From an uncultured Kiritimatiellota bacterium (GTDB lineage: Bacteria; Verrucomicrobiota; Kiritimatiellia; RFP12; UBA1067): DNA of 64,000 nucleotides. The position numbers were made by a program, and so were the translations under genes. Each line of letters begins with the position of its first letter. Within the stretch, counting starts at the first letter, position 1. Below are positions 1 through 26,632 of the stretch, in pieces. The DNA is taken from NCBI GenBank assembly GCA_934643865.1, contig CAKUCX010000002.1, forward strand, positions 2,587-66,586, read 5' to 3'. The notes beneath the pieces are model-generated. The model was given only the letters and a program-made list of their open reading frames with translations. It ran no database searches and was not told the origin of the DNA.

Positions 1-1332
1 ATGCGGCATGTCATCGACCGTGAAATCAACGCGCACGACAACATAGGCGCCCCCGGACAGCTCATGGGCGTGTATGACGCGAAGGAAGAGGAGAACATCG
101 TCGCACGCGCCTACCAGGCTGTGAAGAATGGCGCAGAGACCATTGCGGCCCTCGATTCGGCCATTGGCGAGGAGCGCGGCGGGACAGAGCCCGCCGCACA
201 GCACTCGGATGGTGAGGATAACGACTTCGACATCTTCTCTCTCGTAGGCGCTGGAGCTACGGCATTCGGCAACGATGAAAGTGTGAAGGATTCCGCGAAG
301 GCGCAGAAGAGCGAGCCGACGACGATATTCGCCTCCGAAAGCGACTATCTCGCCGCTGGCCTTGAGTTCATGCAGGGCGTGTCGCATTACAGATACGGGA
401 CGCTTCTCCGCGATGAACGCACAGGACTTCTTTCGCTCCCGATGACGGACGCTCTCAAATCATGGTGCAGACATGTCTTGCCTTACGAGCTGAGACGGCA
501 GATAGGCGACTCGAATGAGCTCAAGTTCACGACCGACGCCGTGGCGATGCAACGCGAGACACAATTTGCCCGTAGCCTGGCGGTGGCAGACTCTGATGAT
601 GAAGGCTCCGTTCCCGAAGAGGCCTGGCCGACAGTCTCCTACCTCTGGCCCCTCAATCCTGTCTCGCGCTGGATAACGGAGAACATTAACGCCACGTTTG
701 GATCGCTCTCCGCTCCTGTTCTTAGAATCGCCGGTCTCTCAAATCCCGTGTTCCTGATTTATGCGCAAGCCCCGAATGAACACGGTGAGCCCTTGGTTCA
801 GCAATGGTTTGTTGTTTCTTTCAAATGTGGCCGGACAGGGCCGGCCACACAAAACTCTTATCTGAGTGAAGTGTTGCCCGCTCCATCTGGCAACATCGCC
901 GCATTGCTTTCGCCATACGGGTTGGATACCCCTAAATTCTCCAATACCGCAGGGACGGATGAAACTCTTGGGTCAGATGAGATGGCCGTTCTCAATTCGC
1001 TGCGGCTTCCTGCAATAGAGGCGGTTAAGCCGCGTCTCGAGGAACTTGTTGCTGCATACGAAGCGGAGAATGCCCCTCGAAATGCGACACTTATGGAAAA
1101 GCTGAAGATCCGTCTCCGGGGTGCAATGGAGCAGCTGGAGTTTGTATTCGACGGCTACGATGAAGGCGTAAAGCGCATGCGCAGAAGATCGTTCGACAAC
1201 GCCAAGCGCAACAGACAGGACGCATATGACAACTTCAAGACGTGGACAGAGACGCACTGCACGCCGTCCCCGTACAGGCTATGCCAGATCATCGCAGTCC
1301 TGACGGGGAAGAAAGGAGGCGTCAATGGCTGA
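1..1332 (+). CDS. Hypothetical protein, 5'-truncated at the window edge. Its stop overlaps the start of the downstream methyltransferase (ATGGCTGA), so the two are translationally coupled. It carries an in-frame copy of the REP-like palindrome (aa segment KCGRTGPATQNSYLSEVLPAPSGNI).
   Basis: Long ORF in the supplied track running off the 5' edge. Start/stop overlap at 1325-1332. Palindrome tgtggccggacagggccggccaca at ~826-849 lies inside the ORF without breaking the frame. Confidence 0.5.
   Translation: MRHVIDREINAHDNIGAPGQLMGVYDAKEEENIVARAYQAVKNGAETIAALDSAIGEERGGTEPAAQHSDGEDNDFDIFSLVGAGATAFGNDESVKDSAKAQKSEPTTIFASESDYLAAGLEFMQGVSHYRYGTLLRDERTGLLSLPMTDALKSWCRHVLPYELRRQIGDSNELKFTTDAVAMQRETQFARSLAVADSDDEGSVPEEAWPTVSYLWPLNPVSRWITENINATFGSLSAPVLRIAGLSNPVFLIYAQAPNEHGEPLVQQWFVVSFKCGRTGPATQNSYLSEVLPAPSGNIAALLSPYGLDTPKFSNTAGTDETLGSDEMAVLNSLRLPAIEAVKPRLEELVAAYEAENAPRNATLMEKLKIRLRGAMEQLEFVFDGYDEGVKRMRRRSFDNAKRNRQDAYDNFKTWTETHCTPSPYRLCQIIAVLTGKKGGVNG
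824..895 (+). repeat. REP/MITE-like element, copy 1. Core 24-nt hairpin tgtggccggacagggccggccaca (9-bp stem, 6-nt loop), a conserved tail cacaaaactcttat, and a second module gtgttgcccgctccatctggcaaca. It sits in-frame inside the 1..1332 ORF.
   Basis: Direct sequence reading. The same core recurs at ~5754 and ~12783 in the same orientation. Confidence 0.8.
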
Positions 1333-4300
1333 GTTTATTGGCATCAGAAACGAGAACGAGTTTTACTTCGCCCATTACCTTTCGTCGCTCATGGACGACG
1401 AACTGAAGGAGATATGCTCGTCCGACGAGATGAAGGCCGCCTGCGACAAGCTCTACAAGCTCCAGCAGGAGTACCATGACTTGCAGGAGGCTCGGGAACT
1501 TGTCAAGCGTCGCCGCCCGGCTGCGTTTAGCGAGGACAGGACGGATTACTTTTCTAGACTCAGGGCGTTCCACTCCCATATTGCCGACATCCTTGGCTAT
1601 GCTGCTGACTGGATTTCACCAGGAACTCGTCTCTTCCCAGGCGCAAAGTTGACGGTCCCCGTCTCTGGCATTCTTGCCGGAAAGGATGGCAACGTACAAG
1701 CCGTCCTCATTGAATCCTGCTACGACTATGCGGCGAGCGTCCGTTTTTCAACTGAGGGCATTCTCGAGAATTTCCTGACATCGGAGCAGACAGCCGTCGA
1801 GGGCCTCCCCGAAGTCTCCAGGCAGATGCTTGCGGACAGGATATGCCTTGGCAAGTCAAAATCGGAAAAGCCGACCTGGGAGAACATCATCTCAAATGAG
1901 ATATTCTCCTCGGAAACTTCTCCCCGGTTCATAGTCGTATTGGGTGAGGATTCGATTCTGCTTGCAGATCAGAAAAAATGGCCAGAGAAGCGCACCCTCA
2001 TCTTCGAGCTGGATGAGATATATTCGCGGGGCGAACGAGCGACATTCAGGGCGATGGCAAGTCTTCTTTCCAAGACGGCTCTTGCGCCCGACGGCGCGAC
2101 GCCGCTTCCAGACAGGCTCGACGAGAACTCCCACAAGAACGCCTTTGGTGTCTCCAAGACGCTGCGCTATGCGATGCGTGAGGCGATTGAACTCCTTGGA
2201 AATGCGATATTGAGGGGAATGGGGAACGGGGAAGAGGGAGGGCGGCTGCCCTCAGCCGCCGAAGTATCGGCCCCTGCTCTTTCCAAAGAGTGCATCATTG
2301 TGATGTACCGCTTCCTGTTTGTGCTTTTCCTGGAGTCGCGCAAGGATCTCGGGTATTTCGAGACAACTCAGAATGTGGACGACATGTTCTGGAGTGCATA
2401 CGGCTTCGACCATCTTCGCGATCTCGAGACAGTGCCGCTCATGACAGACGCCGATAAAAGCGGGCACTACTTCGACCGCTCCATCAAGCAGCTGTTCGCA
2501 AAGATATGGTGGGGCATAGGAGAGAGGAAACAGGGAATAGGGAATAGGGAACAGGGGATAGCGAATGGGGAACAGGGAACTGGGAACAGGGAGGGTGTTG
2601 ATGCATTTAGAATCTTGCCATTGAAAGCACATCTCTTCGATCCAGAACGAACACCCTTGTTCAACGATGCAGAGATACCGAACGATGTTTGGCAGAGAAT
2701 CGTCTATTCGCTTTCCATTGGCGAGGCGGGAACGGGACGCCGCAAGCGCAAGGGCCGTATTTCGTATGCGCAACTCGGAATCCAACAGCTTGGCGCGGTC
2801 TATGAGGCGCTCCTGAGCTACACGGGCTTCAATGCGAAAACCGATCTCTATGAAGTCGCGGCGGCGGGTTCGGACATCTTCGACACCGGCTACTTCGTGA
2901 CAGCTGAAGACCTCAAGGACTACACGAACGAAGAAAAGGTCGCGAATTCAGACGGAACTCTCGTATGCCACCCAAGAGGGGCGTTCATCTACCGCATGGC
3001 TGGACGCGACCGCGAACGTTCGGCTTCATACTATACGCCGGAAGTCCTTACTCGCTGTCTCGTGCGTCTCGCCCTCAAGGAGCGCATCCCGGACGAAATG
3101 CCAGCGGACGAGGTGATGCAGCTTACCGTGTGCGAGCCAGCAATGGGGTCCGCCGCATTCTTGAACGAGGCAATCGACCAGCTCGCCGACATCTACCTCA
3201 AGAAGAAGCAGAAGGAGCTGAAGCGCACCATCCCCGTCGAGAGGTACGCGGCAGAAAAGGCTCGCGTAAAGATGGTGATAGCCGACAACAACGTCTTCGG
3301 CGTTGACCTGAACCCGACCGCCGCAGACCTCGCTGAAGTCTCGCTCTGGCTCGGCTCCATCGGTGGCGAGAGATTGCCGACCGGACAGGATTGCGACGAG
3401 CCGTACATCCCGTGGTTCGGCACCCAACTCAAGTGCGGCAACTCCATCATCGGATGCCGCCGTGAGGTCGTGTTCCGCGACGGAACGCGCAAGGCCGTTG
3501 GCTTCGGCGAGGATTTCCCGAAGAACGCCGTTTGGCACTTCCTCATACCCGACGAGGGCATGGCCATTAACCTTGACGCCGTCGTAAAAGGCATCGTAGG
3601 AGATGAAGTTGCCGAGCGGCTCAAGAAGTGGAAAAAGGCGTTTGCTCTCCCCGACAAAAAGCGACAGTACGAGAATTACGACAGAACCTGGAAGCGGATG
3701 AGCACGCTGTCTGAGGCGATTGACAAGATATGGAGAAGCGCGGCGGATGACATCGCCTCGCTCGACGAACGGACACGGGATGACGTGGCGTACTTTGGAC
3801 ACGAACCGAAGGCCAATGCAATCTCCGACTTGAAGACAAAAGACCGACAACTCTGGACGGAGCTTTCGCGTGACGAATACGGCAATATCGACTACTCGAA
3901 GTCGCTTGGTTCCGTATCTGACTATTTCCGCCTCAAGACGATCCTCGATCTTTGGTGTTCCCTTTGGTTTTGGCCGCTCGACAAGACGGAACGTCTGCCG
4001 ACTTGGGCTGATTTCGAGGCGGCCGTCAGGGTGCTGACAAGAAGCGACTTCGACGAGAAGGAACAGATGGAGCTGGACCTTGGCATCGGCGAGTTGCGCC
4101 TTACCACCGCCGGAACCGAGCTGGAAAAGGAATTCAAGAGGAACCCGACCCTTGGCAACCTTTACAAACTGTTCCCGTTCATCGAGACGTCCGAGGCAAT
4201 AGCCGAGCGTCATCACTTCCTGCACTGGGAGCTGGAGTTCGCGCCGGTGTTCAAGAATCGCGGCGGTTTCGACTTGATAATCGGAAACCCGCCGTGGGTG

Positions 4301-6181
4301 AATGTAGAATTTGATGAAGGTGGATTATTATCCGAATATGAGCCGAAGATCGCGGTACGCAATTATTCCGCTTCAGAAGTGGTGGCCGCAAGGAGGGGAT
4401 TGATATCAGATGAGACTGTCCATGATGGGTATTTAGACGAATATTCATGTGTTAACGGTCAACAGCATTTCCTAACATCTTCTAATAATTATCCTGATTT
4501 AGAGGGGATGAAGGCAAATCTGTTTCAGAATTTTGTCCCTTTAGCAATGAGGTTAATGAATCCTGACGCCATAACGGCATATGTCCATCCTGAAAATTTA
4601 TATTTGGATGCGAAAGGGGATAAAATTCGCCAAATGATTTATCCTAGGTTACTTTTACATGCGCAATTCAGAAATGAATTAAAGCTATTTGATATTGGGA
4701 ATACGCGTGTGTTTAGCCTCAATGTGTATGGACAGATAAAAGACCATGTCAAATTTAAGAATATCTCGACATTGTTCCACCCTTGTACGTTGGAGCAGTC
4801 TTTGAGTATGAGCGATTCAAGCGCTCCAATTCCGCTTGAGAAGACAAATGATGGTCATTGGAATTTGTGTGGTCATTGTGATAGGGTTGTAGATATTTCT
4901 AACGATGAATTGGCCTTGTTTGCAAAGTTTATTGATGGTGAAGGCGTTTCCCCATTGCAAACTAGATTACCTTCGATTTATTTGCGGCAGATAATAGGAA
5001 AGTTATTTCATGCATTTACAAATGTCCAATGCAAATTTGCTTCTAAAAACTTTGAGACTACTGAGTGTTGGGACCCTTCTGCTCACAATGAAGTTGGATT
5101 GATTGGAGGGAAAGCGACATTTCCATCAAATAGCTGTGATGAAATTTATTCTGGCCCGACCATCTTTGTCGCTAATCCAGTATATCAGACACCTCGCAAG
5201 AATTGTTCATCTCATCGCGATTATGAGATGGTTGACCTTACAGCAGTCAATGAAAGTTATCTTCCACGTTCGATTACAAATCGGAAAAGTGATTCAACTA
5301 CATATAGGGCCCATGTACCTGTTTGCCTTGGTAAGTGCATAAGTGATCAATTTAGAATTATTTGTAGATGTCGAATCGATCCCAAGGGGGAGCGAACATT
5401 GATACCGAGCATTTCCGCCAAAGAGTATTTGCATATAAATGGGATTATCTCTTATTGCTTTGACGATTTATCTGAATTGATCAATTCTTCAGGAACATGG
5501 TCTTCGATTCCATATGATTGGTTTATTCGTACGACCCAAAAAACTCATTTCCGAAAGGATATTGCACAATATCTTCCAGCCCTTCCTGACAACCCGATGA
5601 TTCGGGCACGTTCGCTTCTTTTGAATTGCGTGAACCGCGATTATGCTGATTTGTGGCGCGAGGCTTGGGATGATGCGTATTTGACTGATGGCTGGCTGTC
5701 GAGCGATCCAAGATTGACGAAGTGGGCTGATCATTTTGGGGGATGTGGCCGGACAGGGCCGGCCACACAACACTCTCATGAATGGCGGTGGGAGACGCCG
5801 CTTCGCACGCAACTCGACCGCCGTCAGGCGCTCGTTGAGCTTGATGTGATTGTGACGAAGGCACTGGGGTTGTCGCTTGATGATTTGCTGTTGATGTATC
5901 GCGTGTCGTTCCCAGTCCTGCGCAAGTACGAGGCCGACACCTACTACGATCAGAACGGACGGTGTGTGTTCTCGGCGAAGAGTGGCGAGTCGTATCTCTC
6001 GCGGCAGGAGTGGGAGTCAATCAAGGACATGAAGGAGGGCGAGTTCAAGAAGACGATCACCGAGACCGTCTTCAGCGACACGCTCACCGAGCGCACGATC
6101 ACCTACACGGCCCCGTTCTTCAAAAAGGATCGCGAGGCCGACTACAAAGAAGCCTGGGAAATGCTGGAGAAAAGGGATTGA
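1325..6181 (+). CDS. Large gamma-class N6-adenine DNA methyltransferase (PglX / Type IIG-IIL-like), 1618 aa, with a long N-terminal extension and a C-terminal TRD-like region.
   Basis: Motifs read from the translation: YTPE (motif X-like), CEPAMGSAAFL (motif I, FxGxG-like), GVDLNPTAADLAEVSLWL, CGNSIIG, HHFLHWELEFAPVF....GGFDLIIGNPPW (motif IV NPPW at nt ~4286-4297). The region after NPPW (nt ~4300-5750) is much more A+T-rich, as expected for a target-recognition domain. Confidence 0.75.
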   Translation: MAEFIGIRNENEFYFAHYLSSLMDDELKEICSSDEMKAACDKLYKLQQEYHDLQEARELVKRRRPAAFSEDRTDYFSRLRAFHSHIADILGYAADWISPGTRLFPGAKLTVPVSGILAGKDGNVQAVLIESCYDYAASVRFSTEGILENFLTSEQTAVEGLPEVSRQMLADRICLGKSKSEKPTWENIISNEIFSSETSPRFIVVLGEDSILLADQKKWPEKRTLIFELDEIYSRGERATFRAMASLLSKTALAPDGATPLPDRLDENSHKNAFGVSKTLRYAMREAIELLGNAILRGMGNGEEGGRLPSAAEVSAPALSKECIIVMYRFLFVLFLESRKDLGYFETTQNVDDMFWSAYGFDHLRDLETVPLMTDADKSGHYFDRSIKQLFAKIWWGIGERKQGIGNREQGIANGEQGTGNREGVDAFRILPLKAHLFDPERTPLFNDAEIPNDVWQRIVYSLSIGEAGTGRRKRKGRISYAQLGIQQLGAVYEALLSYTGFNAKTDLYEVAAAGSDIFDTGYFVTAEDLKDYTNEEKVANSDGTLVCHPRGAFIYRMAGRDRERSASYYTPEVLTRCLVRLALKERIPDEMPADEVMQLTVCEPAMGSAAFLNEAIDQLADIYLKKKQKELKRTIPVERYAAEKARVKMVIADNNVFGVDLNPTAADLAEVSLWLGSIGGERLPTGQDCDEPYIPWFGTQLKCGNSIIGCRREVVFRDGTRKAVGFGEDFPKNAVWHFLIPDEGMAINLDAVVKGIVGDEVAERLKKWKKAFALPDKKRQYENYDRTWKRMSTLSEAIDKIWRSAADDIASLDERTRDDVAYFGHEPKANAISDLKTKDRQLWTELSRDEYGNIDYSKSLGSVSDYFRLKTILDLWCSLWFWPLDKTERLPTWADFEAAVRVLTRSDFDEKEQMELDLGIGELRLTTAGTELEKEFKRNPTLGNLYKLFPFIETSEAIAERHHFLHWELEFAPVFKNRGGFDLIIGNPPWVNVEFDEGGLLSEYEPKIAVRNYSASEVVAARRGLISDETVHDGYLDEYSCVNGQQHFLTSSNNYPDLEGMKANLFQNFVPLAMRLMNPDAITAYVHPENLYLDAKGDKIRQMIYPRLLLHAQFRNELKLFDIGNTRVFSLNVYGQIKDHVKFKNISTLFHPCTLEQSLSMSDSSAPIPLEKTNDGHWNLCGHCDRVVDISNDELALFAKFIDGEGVSPLQTRLPSIYLRQIIGKLFHAFTNVQCKFASKNFETTECWDPSAHNEVGLIGGKATFPSNSCDEIYSGPTIFVANPVYQTPRKNCSSHRDYEMVDLTAVNESYLPRSITNRKSDSTTYRAHVPVCLGKCISDQFRIICRCRIDPKGERTLIPSISAKEYLHINGIISYCFDDLSELINSSGTWSSIPYDWFIRTTQKTHFRKDIAQYLPALPDNPMIRARSLLLNCVNRDYADLWREAWDDAYLTDGWLSSDPRLTKWADHFGGCGRTGPATQHSHEWRWETPLRTQLDRRQALVELDVIVTKALGLSLDDLLLMYRVSFPVLRKYEADTYYDQNGRCVFSAKSGESYLSRQEWESIKDMKEGEFKKTITETVFSDTLTERTITYTAPFFKKDREADYKEAWEMLEKRD
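5752..5789 (+). repeat. REP/MITE-like element, copy 2 (core hairpin plus cacaacactctcat tail only). It is in-frame inside the methyltransferase gene, at the junction between the low-GC TRD-like segment and the C-terminal region.
   Basis: atgtggccggacagggccggccacacaacactctcat read directly. It translates as GCGRTGPATQHSHE within the MTase ORF. Confidence 0.8.
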
Positions 6182-6199
6182 AACATAGGAGGTTTTTGT

Positions 6200-7435
6200 A
6201 TGTGGAATAAAGCAGAGGCTATAGACTCGTTGACGGTGTTTTACGGGACAATAGAACGCACGGTTGAAGACCCCACTACAACCACAAAGACATGGCGAAG
6301 GTTATGGATGGGCAAAGATAAGGAAATGGAGACCGTGTTCTATGCTCAAGATAAGTTAGATGTGGCTGTGGATTATCTGTTACAGAATAAGTCAATCGAT
6401 GGCAATTTTACGCGTAGTGGACTTTCAGCGTTAGTAGCAGAGCGCCTAGGTGTTGATTTTATTTCCTCTGCGAATTCTCCAAGGGAAAATGTTGAGACAT
6501 TGGTGAGTGAACTCGTCAATAAGAAACCAGAATTGATGAACGTGTACATGGTAATTCATGGTCTCGTGGTGCAACAACGGACAAGTATTGGAGAGTTTGA
6601 GTTTATCCCGGCTAAAGCCTATTCGAGCTTGGGCGTGAAATGTTTTCATCCACAGATGGAAACAAGTATCAAGGAACAGATGTGGCAGAATCAAGATCAT
6701 GTTAAGGTTCCAGTTCTAGCGTGTGAAGCAGCAAAAGCTAGGGAGAAAGCATACGCGGAATTCCAATGGCTTGAGAGCGCCGTGAGATTGTTCGTTGATT
6801 CTGACTTTTATGATATTGGAATAACGTCCTTCAACTATTCGCATGTTGAGAATTCTCTTGTTACGGCTGAAGATGGGCAGATGCGGGGAACGTCAGCCTC
6901 TCTGAAAGGATCGCCTGTGCCACTTCCGTTTGCACGGGTGTTTGCACCCGGAAATTGTCTATGCCGGGTCATCGATAGGCTGGGACGACAGGAGCGTGAT
7001 TTGTCGCAACTTCAGCAGAAAATACGACATGCTGTTTATCTTGGTGGATTATCTGTTAGGGAAACGACTCCTGGCGTGGCGTATTTTCTCTGTGTATCGG
7101 CAATGGAAGCATTGTTTCAGGCAGACACGAGTAAGTACGTTAGCCCTTCAATCGCGCAACAGATCGTTGAGGCGTTTTGTTATCTGATTGCGGACGAGGC
7201 AAAGCGTCGTGACGTGTTTGAACAAATGCGTTCTTTTTATGGTAAACGTTCCGCTTTTGCGCACGGAGGAAAGTCTGAAGTTACTGTCGAGGATGTGCAA
7301 TTGGTTCGCGCGTATCTGCGGGGTGCGATTTTAAAAATGATTGACGATCCGATTCTGTCTAAGTTAAGATCGTCTGAAGACGTGGCTACAAGAGTACGTG
7401 ATATTAAGTTTGGAGAGAAGGAGGCGGTGAAATGA
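6200..7435 (+). CDS. Hypothetical protein (411 aa) with a C-terminal HEPN-like Rx4H motif (YGKRSAFAHGG). It is the first gene of the PHP-ATPase/RT operon.
   Basis: ORF with RBS aggagg 8 nt upstream of the ATG at 6200. Its stop overlaps the start of the next gene (ATGA at 7432-7435). The motif R-S-A-F-A-H near the C-terminus matches the HEPN Rx4-6H signature (Abi_2/AbiD-F style R[SN]xxAH). Confidence 0.55.
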   Translation: MWNKAEAIDSLTVFYGTIERTVEDPTTTTKTWRRLWMGKDKEMETVFYAQDKLDVAVDYLLQNKSIDGNFTRSGLSALVAERLGVDFISSANSPRENVETLVSELVNKKPELMNVYMVIHGLVVQQRTSIGEFEFIPAKAYSSLGVKCFHPQMETSIKEQMWQNQDHVKVPVLACEAAKAREKAYAEFQWLESAVRLFVDSDFYDIGITSFNYSHVENSLVTAEDGQMRGTSASLKGSPVPLPFARVFAPGNCLCRVIDRLGRQERDLSQLQQKIRHAVYLGGLSVRETTPGVAYFLCVSAMEALFQADTSKYVSPSIAQQIVEAFCYLIADEAKRRDVFEQMRSFYGKRSAFAHGGKSEVTVEDVQLVRAYLRGAILKMIDDPILSKLRSSEDVATRVRDIKFGEKEAVK

Positions 7436-10095
7436 AGTATCCGAATGGTTCAGAATGGCGCAAATGGGATTTGCACATTCATACGACGGCTTCGGACGGG
7501 AAGGCGACGCCGTCCGACGTCGTTGAACAGGCACTTGCCGCTGGCGTGAGTGTTATTGCTATTACAGATCACCATACGGCGGCGAATGTCGATGAAGTGA
7601 AGAGTTTGGCGAAAGCCACAGGAGGGCGGCTGTCTGTAATTTCTGGAATTGAATTTCGGACGGAACTTGGTAAAAGTTCAGTTCATATGATTGGTTTGTT
7701 TCCAGATGTGTATCAGGGACAGCTATTGACGGCCTCGGCGTTACATGACCTTGTATTGTGCCCGTTGGGATTGTCGCGTACGGCGATTATTGCCGAGGGT
7801 AGAAAGTATTCGGATTCGGTTGATGAAGTACAACTCTTTAAGACCGGGATGTTTAAACTGCAGGTCAATTTCCAGACGGCTGCGGAACTTATTCGTAAGT
7901 ATGGGGGATTGGTGTCGGTTCATAATGGAACAAAGACGAACGGAATAGATGATCAGATGCGGCATGATGGTCGTGGAATAAGGGATGTGCCCTTATCGGA
8001 GAGTTTGGGACCATTGAAGGAGGAACTTTTACAAAAGTATGTTGATATTTGTGAAGTGAAAAAATCCGTTGAGGCGCCGTTTTATTTGACTGGATTTGGC
8101 CGCGCGTCAATTGTGGCTTCGGATGCTCATGAAATAAATGAGATCGGGACGAAGCCTGTTTGGATTAAAGCCGATCCTACATTTGATGGTCTACGTCAGA
8201 TTCTGTTTGAGCCTGCTGATCGGGTTCGAATTCAGGACGATATGCCAGAACAAAAAGCACCATATCAAACCCTGAGCCATGTTTGCTTGAAAGAAGCCGG
8301 TTTTTGGGATCATCCGCTTCCGCTGAATCCAAGTCTGGTTACCATTATAGGAGGACGTTCTTCCGGCAAGTCAAATCTTCTGTCGGCAATCGCTTGTAAA
8401 GTCGGTTACGCTGATTTGCAGGCTGGTTACGACAGCGAAGAATCATCCTCATTACGTTTTGTTAAAGATCATCTTTCTGCTGTGAGTGTTGCGTGGGCGG
8501 ATGGAGTTGAGGGCCCTGACAAGATGGTTGAGTATTTCCCTCAAGGATATATGATTGGTATTGCGGATAATCCTGGAAGAATTATGCCTATAGTGTGGGA
8601 CATACTTAAAGAGAATCCCGACAATCAACGATTGAGAGAAGAATTTGATCGACAGTTGAATGATTTGAAAAGCACCATTGCGACTGAGTGTTCAAATCTT
8701 TTCACTCAACGGGAAGCACTCCGAAAACTTGATGCAGAAATTAAAGAGAGAGGCGGGATTAAGAGTCATGAACTTGAAGTAAAACGGCTTAGGGATGAAA
8801 TGTCGCAACTTAAAAAACAGCATATGAATATGACTGATGATGAGTTGCGCGAATTTGAGGCTTTGCAGGAACAAGAACGCGAACTGCTGGCTAAACTGCA
8901 AGAGGTGGATGATGATCAGATAGCGTTGAAGTCAATAGAAGATATGCCTGAGATTGATTTCTTCCCAAATATTGACATACCGCTATTCTCTGCTGGTGTC
9001 CAAGATAAGATCGATAAAAAGATCAGTGAAATTAGACGGCAAGGGCTTGTCGCTTGGCAGAGGTTAGTTTCCGATGTTGGGCAGTCGTTGAAGTCGCAAC
9101 AAGACCTCTATGTTAAGAAGCTGAAGGAATTGCGTGAGGGAAACTTGTACAAGAAAGGTGCAGCACATATCGCGGAGAATAGTCAGCTTAAAGCCATTGA
9201 GCAACGTATTCGTCATGAAGAGGACTTGCTGGCGGACGTCAAGAAGATCGTTGATCGTAAACATGATTTGGCGCAACGAAATCGCACTACGATTGAAAAC
9301 TTGGCGAGTCATCACTATGAGCTTTATAAGGTTTCGTGCAAGTTTGCAGATGCTGTAAAGCTTGAGAAGAACGGGCTTTCCATAGCTGGTAGTGTTGCCA
9401 TAAGACAAGATGATTTGAGTCGGTATATCGACGGTCGTATGACGCGAGTTTCTAAGGAACAAAAAGAGTTATATGATAAGATTCTTGCGCATGACTCTTT
9501 CGATGGTGATAAGGTAAATAGCTTTTTGAATCAGACAATGCAGGGAGCAGTGCAATACAATAAAGATGTTGACGAAAAGACAGTTGTTATTGAGCTCTTG
9601 TCGACATGCTGGTTTAAAGTGAATTACGATATTGTTTATCAAAATGATCGACTATCGCAAATGTCACCAGGCAAGCGCTCCTTTGTTATTTTGCAGCTCT
9701 TGCTCGAATTTAGCAACAAGAAATGTCCTATTCTCATTGATCAACCGGAGGATAATCTTGATAACCGCGCAATCTTCAGGGACCTTGTGACATATCTACG
9801 CGCCAAGAAAAGGGAACGTCAGATCATTCTAGTGACGCACAATCCCAATGTTGTTGTTGGAGCTGATGCGGAGCAGGTGATTGTTGCTAATCAGCATGGT
9901 AACGATAGCGTTAATGCAGACAATATGCGATTTGCATATGTTTCTGGTTCGTTGGAAGCGTCGTGGCCGAAAATTTCGCCGACAGCGCCAATACTTGAGT
10001 CGCAGGGCATCCGTGAGCATGTTTGCGAGATTCTTGAAGGCGGTGAAGACGCCTTTAGAAAGAGGGAATCCAAGTATGGCTTGTGGCACAAGTGA
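7432..10095 (+). CDS. PHP-family phosphoesterase domain fused to an SbcC/SMC-like ABC ATPase with a central coiled-coil (887 aa). It resembles the single-gene 'ppl' defence protein architecture.
   Basis: N-terminus carries PHP motifs WDLHIHTTASDG, ITDHHT, GIEF, ASDAH. Walker A is GGRSSGKSNLL (aa ~300). A ~300-aa charged heptad-rich region is rich in K/E/L/Q (LRKLDAEIKERGG...ELLAKLQEVDD...). The C-terminal lobe has the signature-like SPGKRS, Walker B/D-loop ILIDQPEDNLD and H-loop ILVTHNPNV. Confidence 0.75.
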   Translation: MKYPNGSEWRKWDLHIHTTASDGKATPSDVVEQALAAGVSVIAITDHHTAANVDEVKSLAKATGGRLSVISGIEFRTELGKSSVHMIGLFPDVYQGQLLTASALHDLVLCPLGLSRTAIIAEGRKYSDSVDEVQLFKTGMFKLQVNFQTAAELIRKYGGLVSVHNGTKTNGIDDQMRHDGRGIRDVPLSESLGPLKEELLQKYVDICEVKKSVEAPFYLTGFGRASIVASDAHEINEIGTKPVWIKADPTFDGLRQILFEPADRVRIQDDMPEQKAPYQTLSHVCLKEAGFWDHPLPLNPSLVTIIGGRSSGKSNLLSAIACKVGYADLQAGYDSEESSSLRFVKDHLSAVSVAWADGVEGPDKMVEYFPQGYMIGIADNPGRIMPIVWDILKENPDNQRLREEFDRQLNDLKSTIATECSNLFTQREALRKLDAEIKERGGIKSHELEVKRLRDEMSQLKKQHMNMTDDELREFEALQEQERELLAKLQEVDDDQIALKSIEDMPEIDFFPNIDIPLFSAGVQDKIDKKISEIRRQGLVAWQRLVSDVGQSLKSQQDLYVKKLKELREGNLYKKGAAHIAENSQLKAIEQRIRHEEDLLADVKKIVDRKHDLAQRNRTTIENLASHHYELYKVSCKFADAVKLEKNGLSIAGSVAIRQDDLSRYIDGRMTRVSKEQKELYDKILAHDSFDGDKVNSFLNQTMQGAVQYNKDVDEKTVVIELLSTCWFKVNYDIVYQNDRLSQMSPGKRSFVILQLLLEFSNKKCPILIDQPEDNLDNRAIFRDLVTYLRAKKRERQIILVTHNPNVVVGADAEQVIVANQHGNDSVNADNMRFAYVSGSLEASWPKISPTAPILESQGIREHVCEILEGGEDAFRKRESKYGLWHK

Positions 10096-10110
10096 GGAAG
10101 TTTGTTGGTT

Positions 10111-11616
10111 ATGACTGTGCTTGAATTGTCAAATGAAAAGGCGTTGCAGTTCTTTATGGATCCGCAGAGTTACGGATCTACGGAGTTGCCGCCTTATTTT
10201 GATTTTTCAAGGACTTTGAATGTTGCTGAGTCATATATTGGACGCGTACGGGTTTCAAAGACACTTCTGCGCAAGGCGAGTGACGTTGAGGGGGTGAATT
10301 ATACCCTCGTGGATAATAAAGATGGCAAATATGCATGGCGACCGTTGCAATTTATTCATCCATTTCTCTATGCAAAACTTTGCCATGAGATAACTGCACC
10401 CGAAAATTGGGTCTTAATTTGTTCCAGATTCAAAGAGTTCGCTGGGATTCCGGCTATTCGATGCGCAAGTTATCCGTTGGTTAAGACTGTGAAGCCAAAA
10501 ATCAAGGCGGAACAGATCCTTGGCTGGTGGTCGAAGTTTGAGCAAGAATCGTTGGTGTCGGCGATGCGATATCGTTCCATGATTGTTACAGATGTGACAG
10601 ATTGCTATGGCTCAATTTATACGCATTCAATCGCTTGGGCATTACATGGAAAGGACGTTGCGAAGCAGAACAGGGATGGCTCTTTGCTCGGTAATACGAT
10701 AGATCGGTATATTCGTGCCATGCGATATGGCCAGACGAATGGCATCCCGCAGGGGTCAGTGTTGATGGATTTTATAGCTGAGATCGTTCTAGGAAGCATT
10801 GATGAGTGCCTCTATAAGAAACTGGAAGAGGAGAATATTCACGGATATGAGATACTGAGATATCGTGATGATTATCGCATTTTTGTCAACGATACTTCGA
10901 TCGGCGAAAAGGTCTTAAAGACATTGACGATTGTTCTTGCTGAATATGGCATGCGGCTCAATTCGGCGAAAACAAAGATGTCTGTCGATATAGTACGGGA
11001 TTCGGTTAAGGCCGATAAGGTTGCCTGGTTCTCGATTGAAAAGAATTATGAAACGTTGACAGCGGAAAAGAAGTTGTTGCTGCTATACGATCATGCGTCA
11101 CGGTTCCCCAACGCGGGCAGTGTGATGAAACCATTGGTTGATCTGCCAGAGGCGATTAAGTCTGCCTACTTTGGTGATCGGAATCAGATATCGGCCTGTA
11201 TATCAATCGCGACGGAGTTGGCCTATCGTAATCCACGTTGTTATCAATTGTGCATGGCTGTTGTGGCTCAGTTGTTGGACAGAATGGATGTTGTGACGCG
11301 CAGAGAAGTCGCAGGGGACATCTTGACTAAGTTTGGCCATTTGCCGAATACTGGTAGCTTGCAACTGTGGCTTCAGAGAATTATGATTCCATGTGGAATA
11401 TCTCTGGATTATCCTGAGGCGCTGTGTAAACGTGTTGAGAATGTGCCATGTAAGATATGGGAGAATGGATGGCTGGTAGAAGAGCCGGAGCTCGCTAATG
11501 CATTGGAAAGTGCGGAGATTGTGAACAATGAAGTTTTGCGTAACATCAATCCAACGATGTCGGATGATGAGATCAATCTCTTCATCATGCATTATCAGGA
11601 AAATTATCAGGGATAA
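10111..11616 (+). CDS. Reverse transcriptase of the defence-associated Abi/UG type (~500 aa, RT domain plus alpha-helical C-terminal region). No intron or retron RNA structure is evident.
   Basis: RBS GAGGAAG ~10 nt upstream of ATG 10111 (the track start at 10102 is a TTG). RT motifs: A = IVTDVTDCYGSIYTHSI, B' = NGIPQGSVLMDFIAEIVLG, C = ILRYRDDYRIFVN (YxDD), D = GMRLNSAKTKM. It begins 15 nt after the PHP-ATPase stop. Confidence 0.75.
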   Translation: MTVLELSNEKALQFFMDPQSYGSTELPPYFDFSRTLNVAESYIGRVRVSKTLLRKASDVEGVNYTLVDNKDGKYAWRPLQFIHPFLYAKLCHEITAPENWVLICSRFKEFAGIPAIRCASYPLVKTVKPKIKAEQILGWWSKFEQESLVSAMRYRSMIVTDVTDCYGSIYTHSIAWALHGKDVAKQNRDGSLLGNTIDRYIRAMRYGQTNGIPQGSVLMDFIAEIVLGSIDECLYKKLEEENIHGYEILRYRDDYRIFVNDTSIGEKVLKTLTIVLAEYGMRLNSAKTKMSVDIVRDSVKADKVAWFSIEKNYETLTAEKKLLLLYDHASRFPNAGSVMKPLVDLPEAIKSAYFGDRNQISACISIATELAYRNPRCYQLCMAVVAQLLDRMDVVTRREVAGDILTKFGHLPNTGSLQLWLQRIMIPCGISLDYPEALCKRVENVPCKIWENGWLVEEPELANALESAEIVNNEVLRNINPTMSDDEINLFIMHYQENYQG

Positions 11617-11634
11617 GTTTCAGAGGGGATTAAC

Positions 11635-12306
11635 ATGCGAAAATTTCGTAAAGGAATAAATCTGGAAGCGAGAATCAAATCGCTGGAGTTGACAAGGCGT
11701 TGGCTTGTGTTATGTGGTGGCTTACTGTCGTTGTTTGGTCTATCTCTTGGCGGTATGCTTTACAATGGATACTGCTTGTTGAAGGAGCGTGAAGCGGAGT
11801 TGAGGTCGGATTTTTCAAGGGTCACGATGGAATATATTTCGGCGACAAATGATTTGGCGGCGGTGCGAGCGGAGAGTCAATCTACGGCAATGACGGTCGC
11901 AAAGAAATGCGAAGAGCTGACGGGGCTGTGTTCTGAGATTGTGAGAAAAGCAGAAACAGCGAATGAGCTGGTGGAAGAGATCGGGTCGGATTGTCGTCTT
12001 GCACAAGACATGATTCGTAATCTTGATGAGTATGTTGCCAAGAGCTTAAAGACGTCTCCGCAAAGGTTTACAGTTGATGTGTCAGGGACCATGGCAAAAT
12101 GTACGCTTGTTGATGGTGTTGGCGTTCCATATTCAAGAACGGTGGCGGGGACGAGGGCAAACGCGTTGGTTGTTGTTCCTTCTGGATGTGTCTGCGTTGT
12201 GAGGCTTTCTGGGAAGATGTGTCGTGTCAGAATTCAATCTAAGATTCGCGACCGTGTTATTGTGGAGAATGGCGGTAAGATGGGTAAGGTTGAGTACTTT
12301 GATTAA
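11635..12306 (+). CDS. Small protein (223 aa) with a single N-terminal transmembrane helix (WLVLCGGLLSLFGLSLGGMLY) and a beta-rich Cys-containing C-terminal part. It is the last gene of the operon.
   Basis: ORF 18 nt downstream of the RT stop, with RBS-like gagggga. Hydrophobic stretch at aa ~22-43. Confidence 0.45.
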   Translation: MRKFRKGINLEARIKSLELTRRWLVLCGGLLSLFGLSLGGMLYNGYCLLKEREAELRSDFSRVTMEYISATNDLAAVRAESQSTAMTVAKKCEELTGLCSEIVRKAETANELVEEIGSDCRLAQDMIRNLDEYVAKSLKTSPQRFTVDVSGTMAKCTLVDGVGVPYSRTVAGTRANALVVVPSGCVCVVRLSGKMCRVRIQSKIRDRVIVENGGKMGKVEYFD

Positions 12307-12378
12307 GACAGAAAAGGCAAGCGTATGGTAATCCGCGGACATTGATAGTACTCGGGAGAAGAGAGCGGTTTAGACAAC

Positions 12379-13527
12379 ATGAAGACGCAAACGGCAACAG
12401 TAAAGATGACGAAAGCCACCATGAAGCGGCTGAAGGGCTTTGATTACAAGAAGCTCTATTTCTACATGGTGACGCTGAAACGCCGGAAAGGCCTGCGGCC
12501 ATTTTGCGAGATTACGAAGGTGAAAGAGCCGCCAAAAGACGCAAAGGGAAGACCGCGCTATCTAATCGCCAACGAGTTGACCGAGGCTTTTTCGCGTGTG
12601 ATCAGCGAGTTTCACACGAAGTGGTGGGGTATTTGGCCGATCGAATGCTTCATTATCATGCCCGATCATCTTCACCTACTGATCCACATCAAAGATACTG
12701 GCGATCAGATGGCGCTTGGGAAGTATGTTTACCAGTTGATGAAGGCGCTTGCGGTGGAATACTGGCGCTTGACGGGGCAGGATGTGGCCGGACGGGGCCG
12801 GCCACACAACACTCTTATCGAAGAGAAAGGGGGCTCTTTTAATCAGAGTGGTGTGTTGCCCGCTCCATCGTGCAACATTCCCCAGCCCGCTCCATCGGGC
12901 AACACCTTCCAGTCCGCTCCATCGGGCAACAATGCGAAGCTCGCCCCCATCTTCGAGCGCGATTGGCATGATTGGATTGTTAAGAAAGACGGGCAGCTTG
13001 CGGCCTTTACGCGCTACATTCGCGAAAACCCCGAGCGGGCTTGGCTCAGGCAACAGAACCGGCAGTATTTCGGCACGGTTCTGAAAGTTTCCTTTCTCGG
13101 GCGTGAGTGGTTCGCCTACGGCAATCTGGCGATTCTTGAGTTGCCGGTCTTGAAGGCAGTGAAGGGCCATCGCGCCACGAAGCCTGGTTCGCCCGAATGG
13201 CAGGCGCTCGTTGATGAATGTGCGCGCATCGGGCCGGGCGGCGCAGGCGTGGGCACGTTCATGAGCCCGCTGGAGAAAGAATGCGGCAACGCCATCGCCG
13301 CAGCCGGCGGCAAGTGGGTGGTCCTCTCGCCTGAGGGCTTCCATGAACGTTGGCATCCAGTGCGGCAATACGAAAAGTATTGCGCCGAAGGGCGAATGCT
13401 CTTCCTCTCGCTTTATCCGGTGATGGATCGCCAGCCGACCAAGCAGGAGCTTTACCATCGCTGCCACGAGATGGGTGATATCGCGGTGGCAGGGCTAGGT
13501 GGTAGTGACTGCGGAAATGTTGTATAA
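12379..13527 (+). CDS. IS200/IS605-family Y1 (HUH) transposase, RAYT-like, carrying an in-frame ~55-aa REP/tandem-repeat insertion between its HUH motif and its catalytic Tyr motif.
   Basis: KLYFYMVTLKRRKGL (first beta-strand, cf. YHxVWxxKYRR), IMPDHLHLLIHI (HUH) at aa ~94-104, FTRYIRENPERAW (YIxxNP Tyr motif) at aa ~210-220. HUH-to-Tyr spacing is ~114 aa, which becomes ~60 aa (canonical) once the repeat-encoded segment is removed. Confidence 0.65.
   Translation: MKTQTATVKMTKATMKRLKGFDYKKLYFYMVTLKRRKGLRPFCEITKVKEPPKDAKGRPRYLIANELTEAFSRVISEFHTKWWGIWPIECFIIMPDHLHLLIHIKDTGDQMALGKYVYQLMKALAVEYWRLTGQDVAGRGRPHNTLIEEKGGSFNQSGVLPAPSCNIPQPAPSGNTFQSAPSGNNAKLAPIFERDWHDWIVKKDGQLAAFTRYIRENPERAWLRQQNRQYFGTVLKVSFLGREWFAYGNLAILELPVLKAVKGHRATKPGSPEWQALVDECARIGPGGAGVGTFMSPLEKECGNAIAAAGGKWVVLSPEGFHERWHPVRQYEKYCAEGRMLFLSLYPVMDRQPTKQELYHRCHEMGDIAVAGLGGSDCGNVV
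12781..12934 (+). repeat. REP/MITE-like element, copy 3. The core hairpin variant tgtggccggacggggccggccaca and tail are followed by three tandem ~27-bp units (c[ca]g[ct]ccgctccatcgggcaaca-like). All of it is in-frame inside the RAYT-like transposase gene.
   Basis: Direct reading. It translates as AGRGRPHNTLIEEKGGSFNQSGVLPAPSCNIPQPAPSGNTFQSAPSGNN, which sits between the HUH motif and the catalytic Tyr motif of the transposase. Confidence 0.8.
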
Positions 13528-13544
13528 TTTTAACGGAGGCTCTT

Positions 13545-15200
13545 ATGTCATTACCAGTAAACATTGACGACCTGATCAACCACCGCAAGGTGGAGTGGGC
13601 TCGTATCGAGTACAAGGAAGGGTGGAATCCAGAGCGGATTGTCCACACGATCTGCGCTTTTGCCAATGACATCGATAACTGGGGCGGCGGATATGTCATT
13701 ATCGGCATTGCCGAGGAAAACGGGCGTCCCGTGTTCCCGGTAAAGGGGATTGGGCCGAATGAGGTGGATCATATTCAGAAGGAGTTGCTGAACGTCTGTC
13801 ATCTCATCGAGCCGGTCTATATGCCGGTCGTCGAGCCGTGCGTGTACGAGGGCAAGCATCTACTGATCGTCTGGGTGCCGGGTGGGTGTGAGCGTCCGTA
13901 TAAATGCCCAGAGCATATTGTCAAGGACGTCAAGTCGCCAAAGGCTTACTATATCCGCAAACTAGCGAGCACCGTCAAGGCGACACGTCAGGACGAGAAA
14001 GAACTCTTTGAGCTGACTGGGGATGTGCCGTTTGATGACCGCCCGAATGTTCATGCCGACATTACCGACCTCAAGATGAATCTGCTGGTCGAGTATCTAC
14101 ATGAGGTCGGAAGTGATCTCGCGAGCAATGCCGAGGACATGTCGGTCGCCGATGTAGCCCGTAACATGCAGATTGCGGCCGGACCGGCTGAATGCTTCAA
14201 GCCGAAGAATGTGGGACTTATGTTCTTCAATCCGCATCCTGAGAATTTCTTCCGTTGCGCATGGATTGATGTCGTTGACAAACCAGATCCGACCGGCGAG
14301 GGTATGGTCGAGCAAACGTTCCGGGGGCCGCTTCATGTGCAGCTCCGCTCGGCGCTTGACTACATCAGGAACCGCTTTCTGCGTGAAAAGATATTCAAAT
14401 ACGATGATCGGCCAGAGGCTGGCCGATTCTGGAACTACCCCTATCGTGCCATCGAAGAGGTGCTTGCAAACGCCGTCTATCACAAGTCGTATCGAATTGC
14501 AGAGCCTATTACCGTCGTGGTGACACCCGAGGCGATGACGATTTCAAGTCTGCCCGGGCCAGAACGGTCAATAACGGATGCCGATCTCGCTGCTTGTCGT
14601 ATGATTGGCCTCCACTATCGCAACCGTCGTATCGGAGACTTCCTCAAGGAACTCGACCTGGTTGAAGGGCGTAATACGGGCATTCCTGTTGTCGTGAATG
14701 TCATGCGTGAGAACGGGTCGCCGCCGCCAGTCTTTTCGTCTCCCGAAAATCGAGATTGGCTCACCGTCACGTTGCCGGTCAATCCTCATTTCTGTGAAAT
14801 GGAGAGTTCCATTTCACAGAGAACTGCATTGAAAACTGCATTAACTTCGCATAGAGAAACAAACAACGATAATGACGAAGAAAGTGGTGAATTGGCGGAT
14901 CATGGGCGCATTGCCGAAGTTATGACGGCTGAAGAGGAGTTGGAGCATATAAAAGTTGCGCTGAAAACTGCGCTGAAAACTGCGCTGATACACCGCCCTG
15001 CCAAGGTAGTTGAAAGAATGGGAATTTTGCTACAACAATTGCTTAGGGATAAAGATATCACGATCGTTGCGTTGGCGAGTTTTCTTGGTGCTTCCAGGAG
15101 AACTGTTCAGGAGGATATTGCCGTTTTGAAGAACCTCAAGGTTCTAAATCGCATCGGCCCAGACAATGGTGGTGAATGGGTTGTTCTTCTCCGTTTCTGA
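13545..15200 (+). CDS. AlbA_2 (Schlafen-like) domain, HATPase_c-like domain and a C-terminal winged-HTH: a putative regulator of the type common in defence islands.
   Basis: N-terminus HRKVEWARIEYKEGW (AlbA_2 E..EFK-type motif). Mid/C region LHYRNRRIGDFLKELDLVEGRNTGIPVVVNVMRENGSPPPVF (HATPase_c_4-like). ALKTALKTAL repeat, then ...ASFLGASRRTVQEDIAVLKNLKVLNRIG (wHTH). Confidence 0.6.
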   Translation: MSLPVNIDDLINHRKVEWARIEYKEGWNPERIVHTICAFANDIDNWGGGYVIIGIAEENGRPVFPVKGIGPNEVDHIQKELLNVCHLIEPVYMPVVEPCVYEGKHLLIVWVPGGCERPYKCPEHIVKDVKSPKAYYIRKLASTVKATRQDEKELFELTGDVPFDDRPNVHADITDLKMNLLVEYLHEVGSDLASNAEDMSVADVARNMQIAAGPAECFKPKNVGLMFFNPHPENFFRCAWIDVVDKPDPTGEGMVEQTFRGPLHVQLRSALDYIRNRFLREKIFKYDDRPEAGRFWNYPYRAIEEVLANAVYHKSYRIAEPITVVVTPEAMTISSLPGPERSITDADLAACRMIGLHYRNRRIGDFLKELDLVEGRNTGIPVVVNVMRENGSPPPVFSSPENRDWLTVTLPVNPHFCEMESSISQRTALKTALTSHRETNNDNDEESGELADHGRIAEVMTAEEELEHIKVALKTALKTALIHRPAKVVERMGILLQQLLRDKDITIVALASFLGASRRTVQEDIAVLKNLKVLNRIGPDNGGEWVVLLRF

Positions 15201-15210
15201 GGTGACTAAC

Positions 15211-23443: not shown

Positions 23444-23446
23444 ATC

Positions 23447-23764
23447 ATGGCATGCCAGTCTAATCCGGAAACATACGCAATCGTGATAAGGCTCCCTCTT
23501 GAGGAGGGTGCGGCGCTGAAGTCGTTGGCTGACTCGGACGGGGTCGCGGTTAGCGCATTTGTCGCCGGAATGATTCACGAAAAGGTCAAGGGCCACAAAC
23601 TTGACGTTGCAGAACGGGCCTGGATTGCCAAGCACCTGGAGATGAATTTGATCCGCCGTGCCAAGGCCGATGCCAAGACGGCGGCCGGTTACTACAAACG
23701 CAAACGACGCGGCCGTCCGCGCAAGCCAGGTCCTAAAGGGAAGAAGCGAAAGGCAGGAAAATGA
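23447..23764 (+). CDS. Small ribbon-helix-helix (CopG/antitoxin-like) DNA-binding protein with a lysine/arginine-rich AT-hook tail (RGRPRK).
   Basis: Begins 4 nt after the helicase stop. YAIVIRLPLEEGAALKSLADSDGVAVSAFVAGMIHEKV fits the beta-strand/helix/helix RHH pattern. C-terminus KRKRRGRPRKPGPKGKKRKAGK. Confidence 0.5.
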   Translation: MACQSNPETYAIVIRLPLEEGAALKSLADSDGVAVSAFVAGMIHEKVKGHKLDVAERAWIAKHLEMNLIRRAKADAKTAAGYYKRKRRGRPRKPGPKGKKRKAGK

Positions 23765-24068
23765 ACAAGACGTTGATTCTGACAGGATGGTCGAAAACGG
23801 TCTACATGACGGCTGCTGCTGCCGCGCTTGAGGCCCTGAAGTGGGATACCGAATATTTGAAGCAGAGAAATTAGGCGTCGTGAGAATTGACTTGCGATCT
23901 TACATTGCGGAGAGGAGACAGCAGGAGGTGAATTGTGGTTGAAATTTCAGATGACGAACTTTCGCGCATTGAACGGAGAATCGTTTGGCCGTGCGAACAG
24001 GCGTTGGAAAAGAATGGTTGGGTAGTGACATGGTTCCCTGCGGATAGCGACAGGATGCTTGTCGAGAA

Positions 24069-26440: not shown

Positions 26441-26632
26441 CGATATGACTACCCAATGCTACGATATGACTACCCAATGCTATAGGTTGAGGGCGTATGC
26501 CAACCCCGTCCGAAAACGGCCCGAAATGATAAGCACATGGGCTTCAACCCCAAGCATGGGGTATGCTTATCCCCGTCCGACAGCTCAAATCGTCAAATCG
26601 CGACCCCAACCTATAGGTTGAGGCGTATGCAA
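26441..26632. repeat. A+T-rich island-boundary segment containing a 21-bp tandem duplication (gatatgactacccaatgcta x2) and a ~24-bp direct repeat (ctataggttgagg[g]cgtatgc[c]aac) ~130 bp apart.
   Basis: Direct reading of 26441-26481 and of 26478-26502 versus 26608-26632. G+C rises sharply from ~26.7 kb onward. Confidence 0.5.

Follow-up and report, generated by a model that had tools for sequence, protein, structure and literature searches.

The methyltransferase gene and its partners

Near the left end of a 64,000-nucleotide (nt) stretch of contig CAKUCX010000002.1 (GenBank assembly GCA_934643865.1, positions 2,587 to 66,586), which comes from an uncultured Kiritimatiellota bacterium and is called the window here, lies a gene for a PglX/DrmMI-like N6-adenine DNA methyltransferase of 1618 amino acids (aa), at 1325-6181 on the + strand. 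A preliminary description, made from the letters of the window alone, had presented it as an oversized PglX-like enzyme without the partners of a BREX or DISARM system. In our analysis it is very probably armB of ARMADA type II, a four-gene defence system (armABCD) that Bell et al. (bioRxiv, September 2025; PMC12458937) named and tested in E. coli, and whose EDL933 representative was studied independently (10.1101/2025.09.22.677730), the tested E. coli systems being those of NCTC 12900, ATCC 8739 and EDL933 OI-172 (PMC12458937; 10.1101/2025.09.22.677730). The arm names are used for the window genes throughout.

The armB gene was defined by the open reading frame (ORF) call, Pfam, PADLOC and alignment with E. 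coli ArmB. Its frame runs for 1618 uninterrupted codons in the ORF listing of the window, and the translation, which includes RHHFLHWELEFAPVFKNRGGFDLIIGNPPW, does contain the NPPW motif and PglX-like flanking blocks that had been pointed out in it. The S-adenosylmethionine (SAM)-binding motif I (CEPAMGSAAFL, residues 603-613, 3131-3163, + strand) places G608 opposite G605 of E. coli ArmB, and the catalytic motif IV (NPPW, residues 988-991, 4286-4297, + strand) places N988 opposite E. coli N971. Pfam returned Eco57I (1e-16), N6_Mtase and MmeI_Mtase, while the PADLOC models that matched were REase_MTase_IIG (6e-208 over residues 733-1615 and 1e-156 over residues 190-1447), DrmMI (4e-43) and PglX (8e-6). 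The start of armB overlaps the stop of the preceding gene by 8 nt (ATGGCTGA) and has GGAGG 6 nt to its 5' side, which makes the suggested translational coupling to the truncated upstream ORF plausible.

The supposed excess length, attributed to an N-terminal extension of about 600 aa, did not survive comparison with the family. A protein database search gave 1680 relatives of ArmB at E<=1e-10, and the best 120 of these are about 1500-1850 aa long, save for a few shorter entries. In an alignment of 16 sequences, 39-78% identical to the window protein, invariant columns span residues 1-1611, the first 570 included, and the residues of the SAM-binding and catalytic motifs are all invariant. Since the relatives are of similar length and the invariant columns run from residue 1 to 1611, ArmB is not oversized as judged from these comparisons: its length is the family norm and its first ~600 aa are no extension. 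Its SAM motif lies only about 285 residues deeper than in the BREX PglX profile (596-676 versus profile positions 311-377).

Three partners accompany armB on the + strand. The window start cuts the first of them, armA, leaving the 3' part (1-1332, 443 codons) of a gene for an SNF2/BrxHII/DrmD-like helicase of 1018 aa, and the 443-aa fragment had no hidden Markov model (HMM) match in PADLOC or Pfam. Because of this cut, the observation that no drmD was recognisable inside the window was right as far as it went, but the broader statement that partners were missing was not, as armA, armC and armD are all present. A protein identical to ArmB occurs on 20 metagenome contigs, two of which reach 10 kb upstream, and the complete armA was recovered from such contigs (L001:6952-10008) as a 1018-aa SNF2 helicase that matches PADLOC DrmD at 2e-97 and BrxHII at 1e-50 and that shares the Walker A (K147) and Walker B (D247) residues with E. 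coli ArmA.

The third gene, armC (15166-21288), encodes a 2040-aa YprA-like DEAD/DEAH helicase with an MZB/DUF1998 region and, at its C-terminus, a predicted Vsr-type nuclease. Pfam recognised DEAD, Helicase_C and MZB domains, and PADLOC recognised DruE (3e-87) and DrmA (8e-17); the NCBIfam model for DISARM DrmA scored 20 bits against a cut-off of 999. The nuclease core (RPDFVF ... FLDGWEYH ... D1722, R1726, D1743; 20221-20394, + strand) emerged from an alignment of 40 ArmC sequences, in which D1688, D1710, G1711 and H1715 are present in 40/40 and D1722, R1726 and D1743 each occur in at least 93%. Pfam gave a weak match to REase_MTES_1575 in this region (E 0.13), and the pattern PDF...DGxxxH...D...R...D is one that we take to fit Vsr/DUF559. 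The C-terminus of ArmC is thus predicted, from these residues, to be an active Vsr-type nuclease of the PD-(D/E)xK superfamily, and a Vsr-type nuclease in this position was also predicted by the ARMADA authors (PMC12458937).

The fourth gene, armD (21281-23443), overlaps the armC stop by 8 nt and encodes a 720-aa UvrD/GajB-like helicase (Pfam UvrD-helicase and UvrD_C; PADLOC GajB 8e-32) in which K278 and D464 are conserved relative to E. coli ArmD. It carries an extra N-terminal domain of ~250 aa, in which Pfam found nothing at E<=1. This domain aligns with E. coli ArmD from residue 4, and on that alignment we regard it as homologous to the N-terminal domain of E. coli ArmD; a RelE-like RNase domain at this end of ArmD is a feature of ARMADA type II (PMC12458937).

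The E. coli reference locus for these comparisons was retrieved via a Citrobacter locus (L075) that matches 528 E. coli genomes at ~85% identity. Against it, the window ArmA, ArmB, ArmC and ArmD are 39, 35, 32 and 36% identical, respectively, over nearly their full lengths, ArmA aligning end to end, ArmB over residues 4-1611 and ArmD over residues 4-712. The eight positions that were mutated in E. coli (ArmA K136 and D236; ArmB G605 and N971; ArmC K110 and D234; ArmD K266 and D454) are all identical in the window proteins and lie in identical local motifs. The window ArmC scored 484+367 bits against E. coli ArmC versus 119 bits against the E. coli DruE of the Druantia on the same island. ArmA directly upstream, ArmB with GxG and NPPW, ArmC with a fused DUF1998 and Vsr-type nuclease motif, and a UvrD/GajB-like ArmD with an extra N-terminal domain right after ArmC are all found here, and as in E. 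coli the four genes share one order and orientation on a tRNA-linked mobile island. The window system differs from that of E. coli in its 9-kb six-gene cassette between armB and armC, in lacking a neighbouring Zorya II or Druantia III, in its host, an uncultured bacterium of ~70% GC, and in the small in-frame palindromic insertions that armA and armB each carry.

The gene order was surveyed by calling the ORFs of 80 genome loci, which come from many phyla, and searching these with the window proteins. An SNF2 gene lies directly upstream of the methyltransferase in 68 of the 70 loci with enough upstream sequence, ArmC lies downstream of it in 56 loci, and ArmD comes right after a full-length ArmC in 27 of the 29 loci with room for it; the order SNF2, methyltransferase, YprA, UvrD is conserved across phyla. 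ARMADA II-like loci were found in Desulfobacterota, Bacillota, Planctomycetota, Verrucomicrobiota/Kiritimatiellae, Bacteroidota, Cyanobacteriota and others, the closest genome match being a Kiritimatiellae metagenome-assembled genome. A scan with one genome per species gave at least 573 loci, and in more than 570 species genomes the homologues are about 1550-1700 aa long, with conservation from residue 1 through to the C-terminus. Two loci stand out as oddities. One (L028:~3015-10100) has a 2361-aa ORF spanning the ArmB homologue, no separate SNF2 gene upstream and no ArmD after ArmC, which could reflect a fused or variant ArmA-ArmB or else an error of ORF calling. The other (L010, PWMI01000037.1) has an ArmB homologue of 40% identity on a contig of 6.5 kb that was assigned to the bin "Candidatus Iainarchaeum archaeon"; ARMADA II was reported to be absent from archaea (PMC12458937), and the archaeal placement may be a binning error.

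We put the probability at about 90% that the methyltransferase gene is armB of an ARMADA type II system (armA SNF2, armB methyltransferase, armC YprA helicase-nuclease, armD UvrD-like), carried by a mobile island of low GC content that adjoins a tRNA-Ala gene. The suggestion that it might be the modification arm of a system using the downstream helicase-nucleases was therefore essentially correct, except that the system is not a new one. Several points weigh on the other side. The operon is interrupted by 9 kb, whereas a strict gene order was described for the system (PMC12458937); identity to the tested E. coli proteins is merely 32-39%; and the PADLOC 2.0 label for ArmB is Type IIG (6e-208), far ahead of DrmMI (4e-43) and PglX (8e-6). 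In addition, E. coli ArmB with the SAM-site substitution G605A keeps partial defence (PMC12458937), and methylation is unreported in either ARMADA paper, the word "methylation" occurring 0 times in the main text of PMC12458937.

Alternative readings of the locus

Among the known systems that the locus calls to mind, class 1 DISARM resembles it in outline: there too, genes for an SNF2 helicase and a large N6-adenine methyltransferase come before one for a helicase of the YprA family, with DUF1998. The methyltransferase could on this ground be DrmMI, with DrmA and DrmB fused and DrmC lost or replaced, a reading that accommodates the DrmD match of the SNF2 partner (2e-97), the DrmMI match of the methyltransferase (4e-43, weaker than that to REase_MTase_IIG, both from PADLOC) and the order SNF2, methyltransferase, helicase/DUF1998, and that gains some colour from the ARMADA authors themselves calling their system DISARM-related (PMC12458937). 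The details speak otherwise. The window helicase is nearer to DruE (3e-87) than to DrmA (8e-17, and 20 bits against the NCBIfam cut-off of 999), helicase and MZB/DUF1998 are in one 2040-aa ORF and not in separate drmA and drmB genes, and the nuclease is a fused Vsr type where DISARM has a separate phospholipase D-like (PLD) protein, DrmC, no PLD being present among the island proteins scanned (ORFs of at least 200 aa). The UvrD-like fourth gene has no counterpart in DISARM, the published phylogeny sets ARMADA apart from DISARM (PMC12458937), and class 1 DISARM tolerates single deletions, whereas ARMADA needs every gene (PMC12458937). We therefore consider DISARM very improbable as the identity of this locus. 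Druantia type III was also compared, as ArmC is a sister of DruE within the YprA family of helicases, both have DUF1998, and PADLOC names ArmC "DruE"; it was rejected, there being no DruH-like gene, a Vsr motif at the C-terminus of ArmC where DruE has tandem PLD domains (PMC12458937), and a weak match (119 bits) to E. coli DruE.

The notion of a PglX whose BREX companions lie outside the window fares worse still, and we give it practically no credence. ArmB and PglX are both large gamma-class N6-adenine methyltransferases with a variable specificity region, required for defence and presumably for modification, whose deletion is non-toxic. Their sequence similarity, however, is limited to weak local matches around the SAM motif (PADLOC 8e-6; NCBIfam BREX_1_MTaseX 29.9 bits against a cut-off of 500), and ArmB exceeds PglX by ~400 aa and differs from it in its conserved N-terminal region. 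The earlier account had allowed for a BREX- or DISARM-like system with its core genes upstream and the reverse transcriptase operon embedded as an accessory cassette. A DrmD-like SNF2 gene is indeed upstream and the reverse transcriptase genes are an insertion, and in its DISARM-like version the proposal comes near the mark. The BREX part of it is refuted by the upstream sequence: over 10 kb there is nothing but the SNF2 gene, a tRNA gene and housekeeping genes, with tRNA-Ala and housekeeping genes beyond armA in the place of a canonical BREX operon, and no PglZ, BrxC, BrxL, BrxA or BrxB was found there or among the scanned island proteins (~27 kb of the window).

The PADLOC label raises a different question, i.e., whether ArmB is a stand-alone Type IIG/IIL restriction enzyme, its first ~260 residues a PD-(D/E)xK nuclease like those of MmeI and DrdV and its neighbouring helicases unrelated. 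Apart from the two top PADLOC models (6e-208 and 1e-156) and the Pfam Eco57I and MmeI_Mtase matches, ArmB shares with such enzymes the build of one large polypeptide in which an Eco57I/MmeI-type methyltransferase core is followed by a specificity domain. An AlphaFold2 (AF2) model of residues 1-570 (mean predicted local distance difference test score, pLDDT, 72.7, and 85-94 across most of residues 30-260) has an alpha/beta domain, confident at about residues 60-235, and then helices, and its top Foldseek matches in the PDB are to the Type IIL enzyme DrdV. These matches (7lvv_D and 7lo5_C) have non-significant E-values of 0.27 and 0.4, the former with a probability of 0.84 and a TMt of 0.51, and amount to a faint structural resemblance to the nuclease domain of DrdV. 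The 16-sequence alignment showed no conserved D...(D/E)xK triad in the N-terminal domain; in strands 96-130 the invariant residues are G91, P112 and G122, E130 is merely usually E, and no acidic or lysine residue is invariant. The HMM scan that had been proposed for the N-terminus found no nuclease family, Pfam giving none at E<=1 in the first 560 aa or in the last 618 aa when these were rescanned, and PDB sequence searches with the single ArmB protein and with profiles A1 and A2 gave 0 matches. A second AF2 model, of residues 541-1618 from a 9-sequence alignment, had a mean pLDDT of 49.7, too poor for Foldseek. Sequence and model thus offer no evidence of nuclease activity at the N-terminus of ArmB, and the domain there would at most be a degenerate remnant of the nuclease domain of a Type IIL enzyme. 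The genomic company of ArmB also speaks against such an enzyme: the SNF2 gene adjoins it in 68/70 loci and ArmC is downstream in most (56 loci), which rules out a single-gene system, and defence in E. coli requires four genes together (PMC12458937). Unlike MmeI or DrdV, ArmB has an obligate genomic partnership with three helicases, and the predicted active nuclease sits in ArmC. "REase_MTase_IIG" is the name of a family and not a functional test, and we hold the Type IIG/IIL option, which the preliminary description had listed, to be every bit as improbable as the DISARM one.

The N-terminal half of ArmB also has a low-complexity repeat of GNxEQG type (GIGERKQGIGNREQGIANGEQGTGNRE), at 2217-2239 and 2535-2585 (residues ~298-305 and ~404-420). 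It falls in a loop of the AF2 model with pLDDT <50, and among close homologues it is the most variable stretch of this half of the protein.

Specificity and a possible mode of action

Beyond the catalytic motif, ArmB contains a hypervariable block at residues ~1001-1450 (4325-5674, + strand), recognised by a drop in identity among close homologues. In homologues that are 74-90% identical overall, the block is 25-60% identical, whereas residues 1-1000 and 1500-1618 are mostly 76-99% identical, with the exception of the variable low-complexity patch at 401-450. The edges of the block are sharp, and homologues share parts: one (P0001) has the block in common with the window protein, and another (P0002) has everything else. 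Sharp edges and part-sharing pairs are the pattern of a swapped target-recognition domain, which the block probably is on this comparative evidence, and the pattern agrees with a report that names armB as the chief variable gene in the E. coli island (10.1101/2025.09.22.677730).

What is established for E. coli frames any proposal on function. All four ARMADA genes are required there and defence is direct and non-abortive (PMC12458937); the NPPW substitution N971A in ArmB abolishes defence (PMC12458937); and a delta-armB strain grows normally until infected, being phage-sensitive and not autoimmune (10.1101/2025.09.22.677730). A precedent from DISARM is DrmMI of the class 1 system of Serratia sp. 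SCBI, which makes N6-methyladenine at the non-palindromic sequence ACACAG and whose methylases can be lost without autoimmunity. We propose that ArmB, made together with ArmA via translational coupling, would read a short asymmetric DNA motif through its variable domain (~1001-1450) and methylate the host copies of the motif at N6-adenine, as DrmMI does at ACACAG. ArmB would also be needed for recognising unmodified foreign DNA, as PglX is in BREX, and such a role would explain why its loss costs the cell its defence and not its life. ArmC would load on the invading DNA, translocate along it or unwind it, and cut it by means of its Vsr-type nuclease, with ArmD perhaps helping as a second motor. 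In view of the partial defence of the G605A mutant and the lack of a methylation report, self-marking is a step that we infer, by analogy with related systems, and it is the weakest of the scheme.

The same observations can be turned into another proposal, namely that within ARMADA II, ArmB does not mark self by methylation and acts mainly as a sequence or DNA sensor and scaffold, and that self is told from non-self by some other cue, e.g., free DNA ends or single-stranded DNA (ssDNA) perceived through ArmC. The partial activity of G605A (PMC12458937), the absence of methylation from the main text of the same paper and the lack of autoimmunity in delta-armB cells (10.1101/2025.09.22.677730) all sit comfortably with it, as does class 1 DISARM, which methylates only partly and is not autoimmune when it loses its methylases. 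The related DruE recognises ssDNA, and cues of this kind are reported for DrmAB and DruE. Against it, the catalytic N971A substitution abolishes defence (PMC12458937), the SAM-binding and catalytic residues are invariant in the 16-sequence alignment, and a hypervariable block is the signature of diversifying specificity, as in modification-based systems. On balance we think such a mainly sensing ArmB unlikely, and favour an ArmB that modifies as well as recognises DNA, although this alternative deserves more weight than the DISARM, BREX or Type IIG readings of the locus.

The island and the armB-armC junction

The four arm genes lie on the first ~27 kb of the window, an island of 43-60% GC in a genome of ~70% GC. 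A tRNA-Ala(GGC) gene (L001:6239-6314, upstream of the window) immediately precedes the island and is itself preceded by unrelated housekeeping genes that differ between contigs; at the other end, GC content climbs to the host level near a tRNA-Met gene at 27119-27193. Contigs with different surroundings, one with flanks of 62-63% GC and another of 72-74% GC, have an identical island behind this tRNA-Ala gene, and identical islands with different flanks imply that the island has recently moved between hosts. When att sites were sought, no 14-mer from the 3' end of the tRNA-Ala gene recurred on the island's right side, and no integrase was found. At that right end (24069-26356) there are two low-GC genes, for a 412-aa alpha/beta-hydrolase-like protein (Abhydrolase_6, 8e-7) and a 371-aa protein without a family match, and near the border is a perfect 21-nt tandem duplication (CGATATGACTACCCAATGCTA twice, 26441-26482).

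The island also harbours a short palindromic repeat, which in armB (5743-5788, + strand) is in frame and adds GCGRTGPATQ, with further copies at 825-870 in armA and at 12782-12827 in a gene for a 382-aa protein. Its core is a 24-nt hairpin, TGTGGCCGG-ACRGGG-CCGGCCACA, with a conserved tail (826-849, 5744-5767 and 12783-12806, and a weaker copy at 174-219), and it is in frame in all three genes, encoding CGRTGPATQ; no copies are expected by chance. In armB the palindrome is a clean 10-codon insertion, which among the close homologues examined only P0002 has. A metagenome scan for the element found two further contigs, and on the one inspected (L086) a homologue of the 382-aa gene contains it. 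The palindrome may represent a very small mobile element able to reside within coding sequence.

Between armB and armC lies a cassette of six genes (6200-15200, + strand; ORF calls, PADLOC, Pfam and NCBIfam), co-directional with gaps of at most 72 nt. It opens with a gene for a 411-aa protein without an assigned family (6200-7435), followed by those for a TrlF-family PHP-ATPase (7432-10095; NCBIfam 8e-159) and an AbiP2-type reverse transcriptase (10102-11616; PADLOC 1e-178), a 223-aa coiled-coil-like protein (11635-12306), the 382-aa protein (12379-13527) and a Schlafen/AlbA_2-HATPase_c_4-HTH protein (13545-15200). The preliminary description was thus borne out in placing PHP-ATPase and reverse transcriptase genes, and no pglZ, downstream of the methyltransferase, with the qualification that the 411-aa gene comes first. 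As a set, the six genes occur only in L001-L004, which carry the same element, and are absent from the 80 other ARMADA loci; the Schlafen-like gene alone has relatives in two of these (L005 and L006). The reverse transcriptase and PHP-ATPase genes are, accordingly, an insertion into an ARMADA operon. On the unrelated metagenome contig L086, a homologue of the 382-aa gene (1848-2918) is followed by a Schlafen/AlbA_2-like gene (2937-4601), and these two genes may form a module.

Interruption at this point proved to be common. In the 55 other loci that hold both armB and armC, the two genes are adjacent in 23 (gap of at most 117 nt) and separated by inserts of 0.7-9.6 kb in 32, and the inserted proteins are almost all mutually unrelated. 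Known defence genes are among them: Gabija GajA with GajB (L041, L056), Zorya II ZorA2-B2-E2 (L033, L072), PDC-M04A with B (L009, L013, L065), Tiamat TmtA (L069) and PtuA/AbiL-like ATPases. The closest genome relative of the window locus (L005, 61% ArmB identity) has a different insert and keeps a Schlafen-like gene before armC. The armB-armC junction is an insertion hotspot that receives, among other cargo, complete known defence systems; the main text of PMC12458937, as far as we found, does not mention this junction. A bolder idea is that the junction is a dedicated docking site, in which whole defence systems are inserted and expressed from the ARMADA operon, making ARMADA a carrier that builds synergy. 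We offer this tentatively, as something possible but more doubtful than likely. A promoter and terminator scan of 5500-24500 gave no enrichment over shuffled sequences and no clear armB-armC terminator, a result that is uninformative for this host.

Taken for what it is, the window system is a member of the system described in 2025 and not a new one, and the apparent orphan, oversized PglX is a standard component of an already named and tested defence system, which removes a false lead. The PADLOC v2.0 HMMs would label its pieces DrmD, Type IIG, DruE and GajB, and this matters for the reading of automated annotation. Beyond the main text of both ARMADA preprints the additions are modest: ARMADA II-like loci abound far beyond Actinomycetota and Pseudomonadota; unrelated defence cargo very often interrupts the "strict" operon at armB-armC; and ArmB has a hypervariable block of ~450 aa that is the obvious place to look for sequence specificity. 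If the junction is indeed a docking site, it would be an intra-operon parallel to the adjacency of Zorya, Druantia and ARMADA in E. coli.

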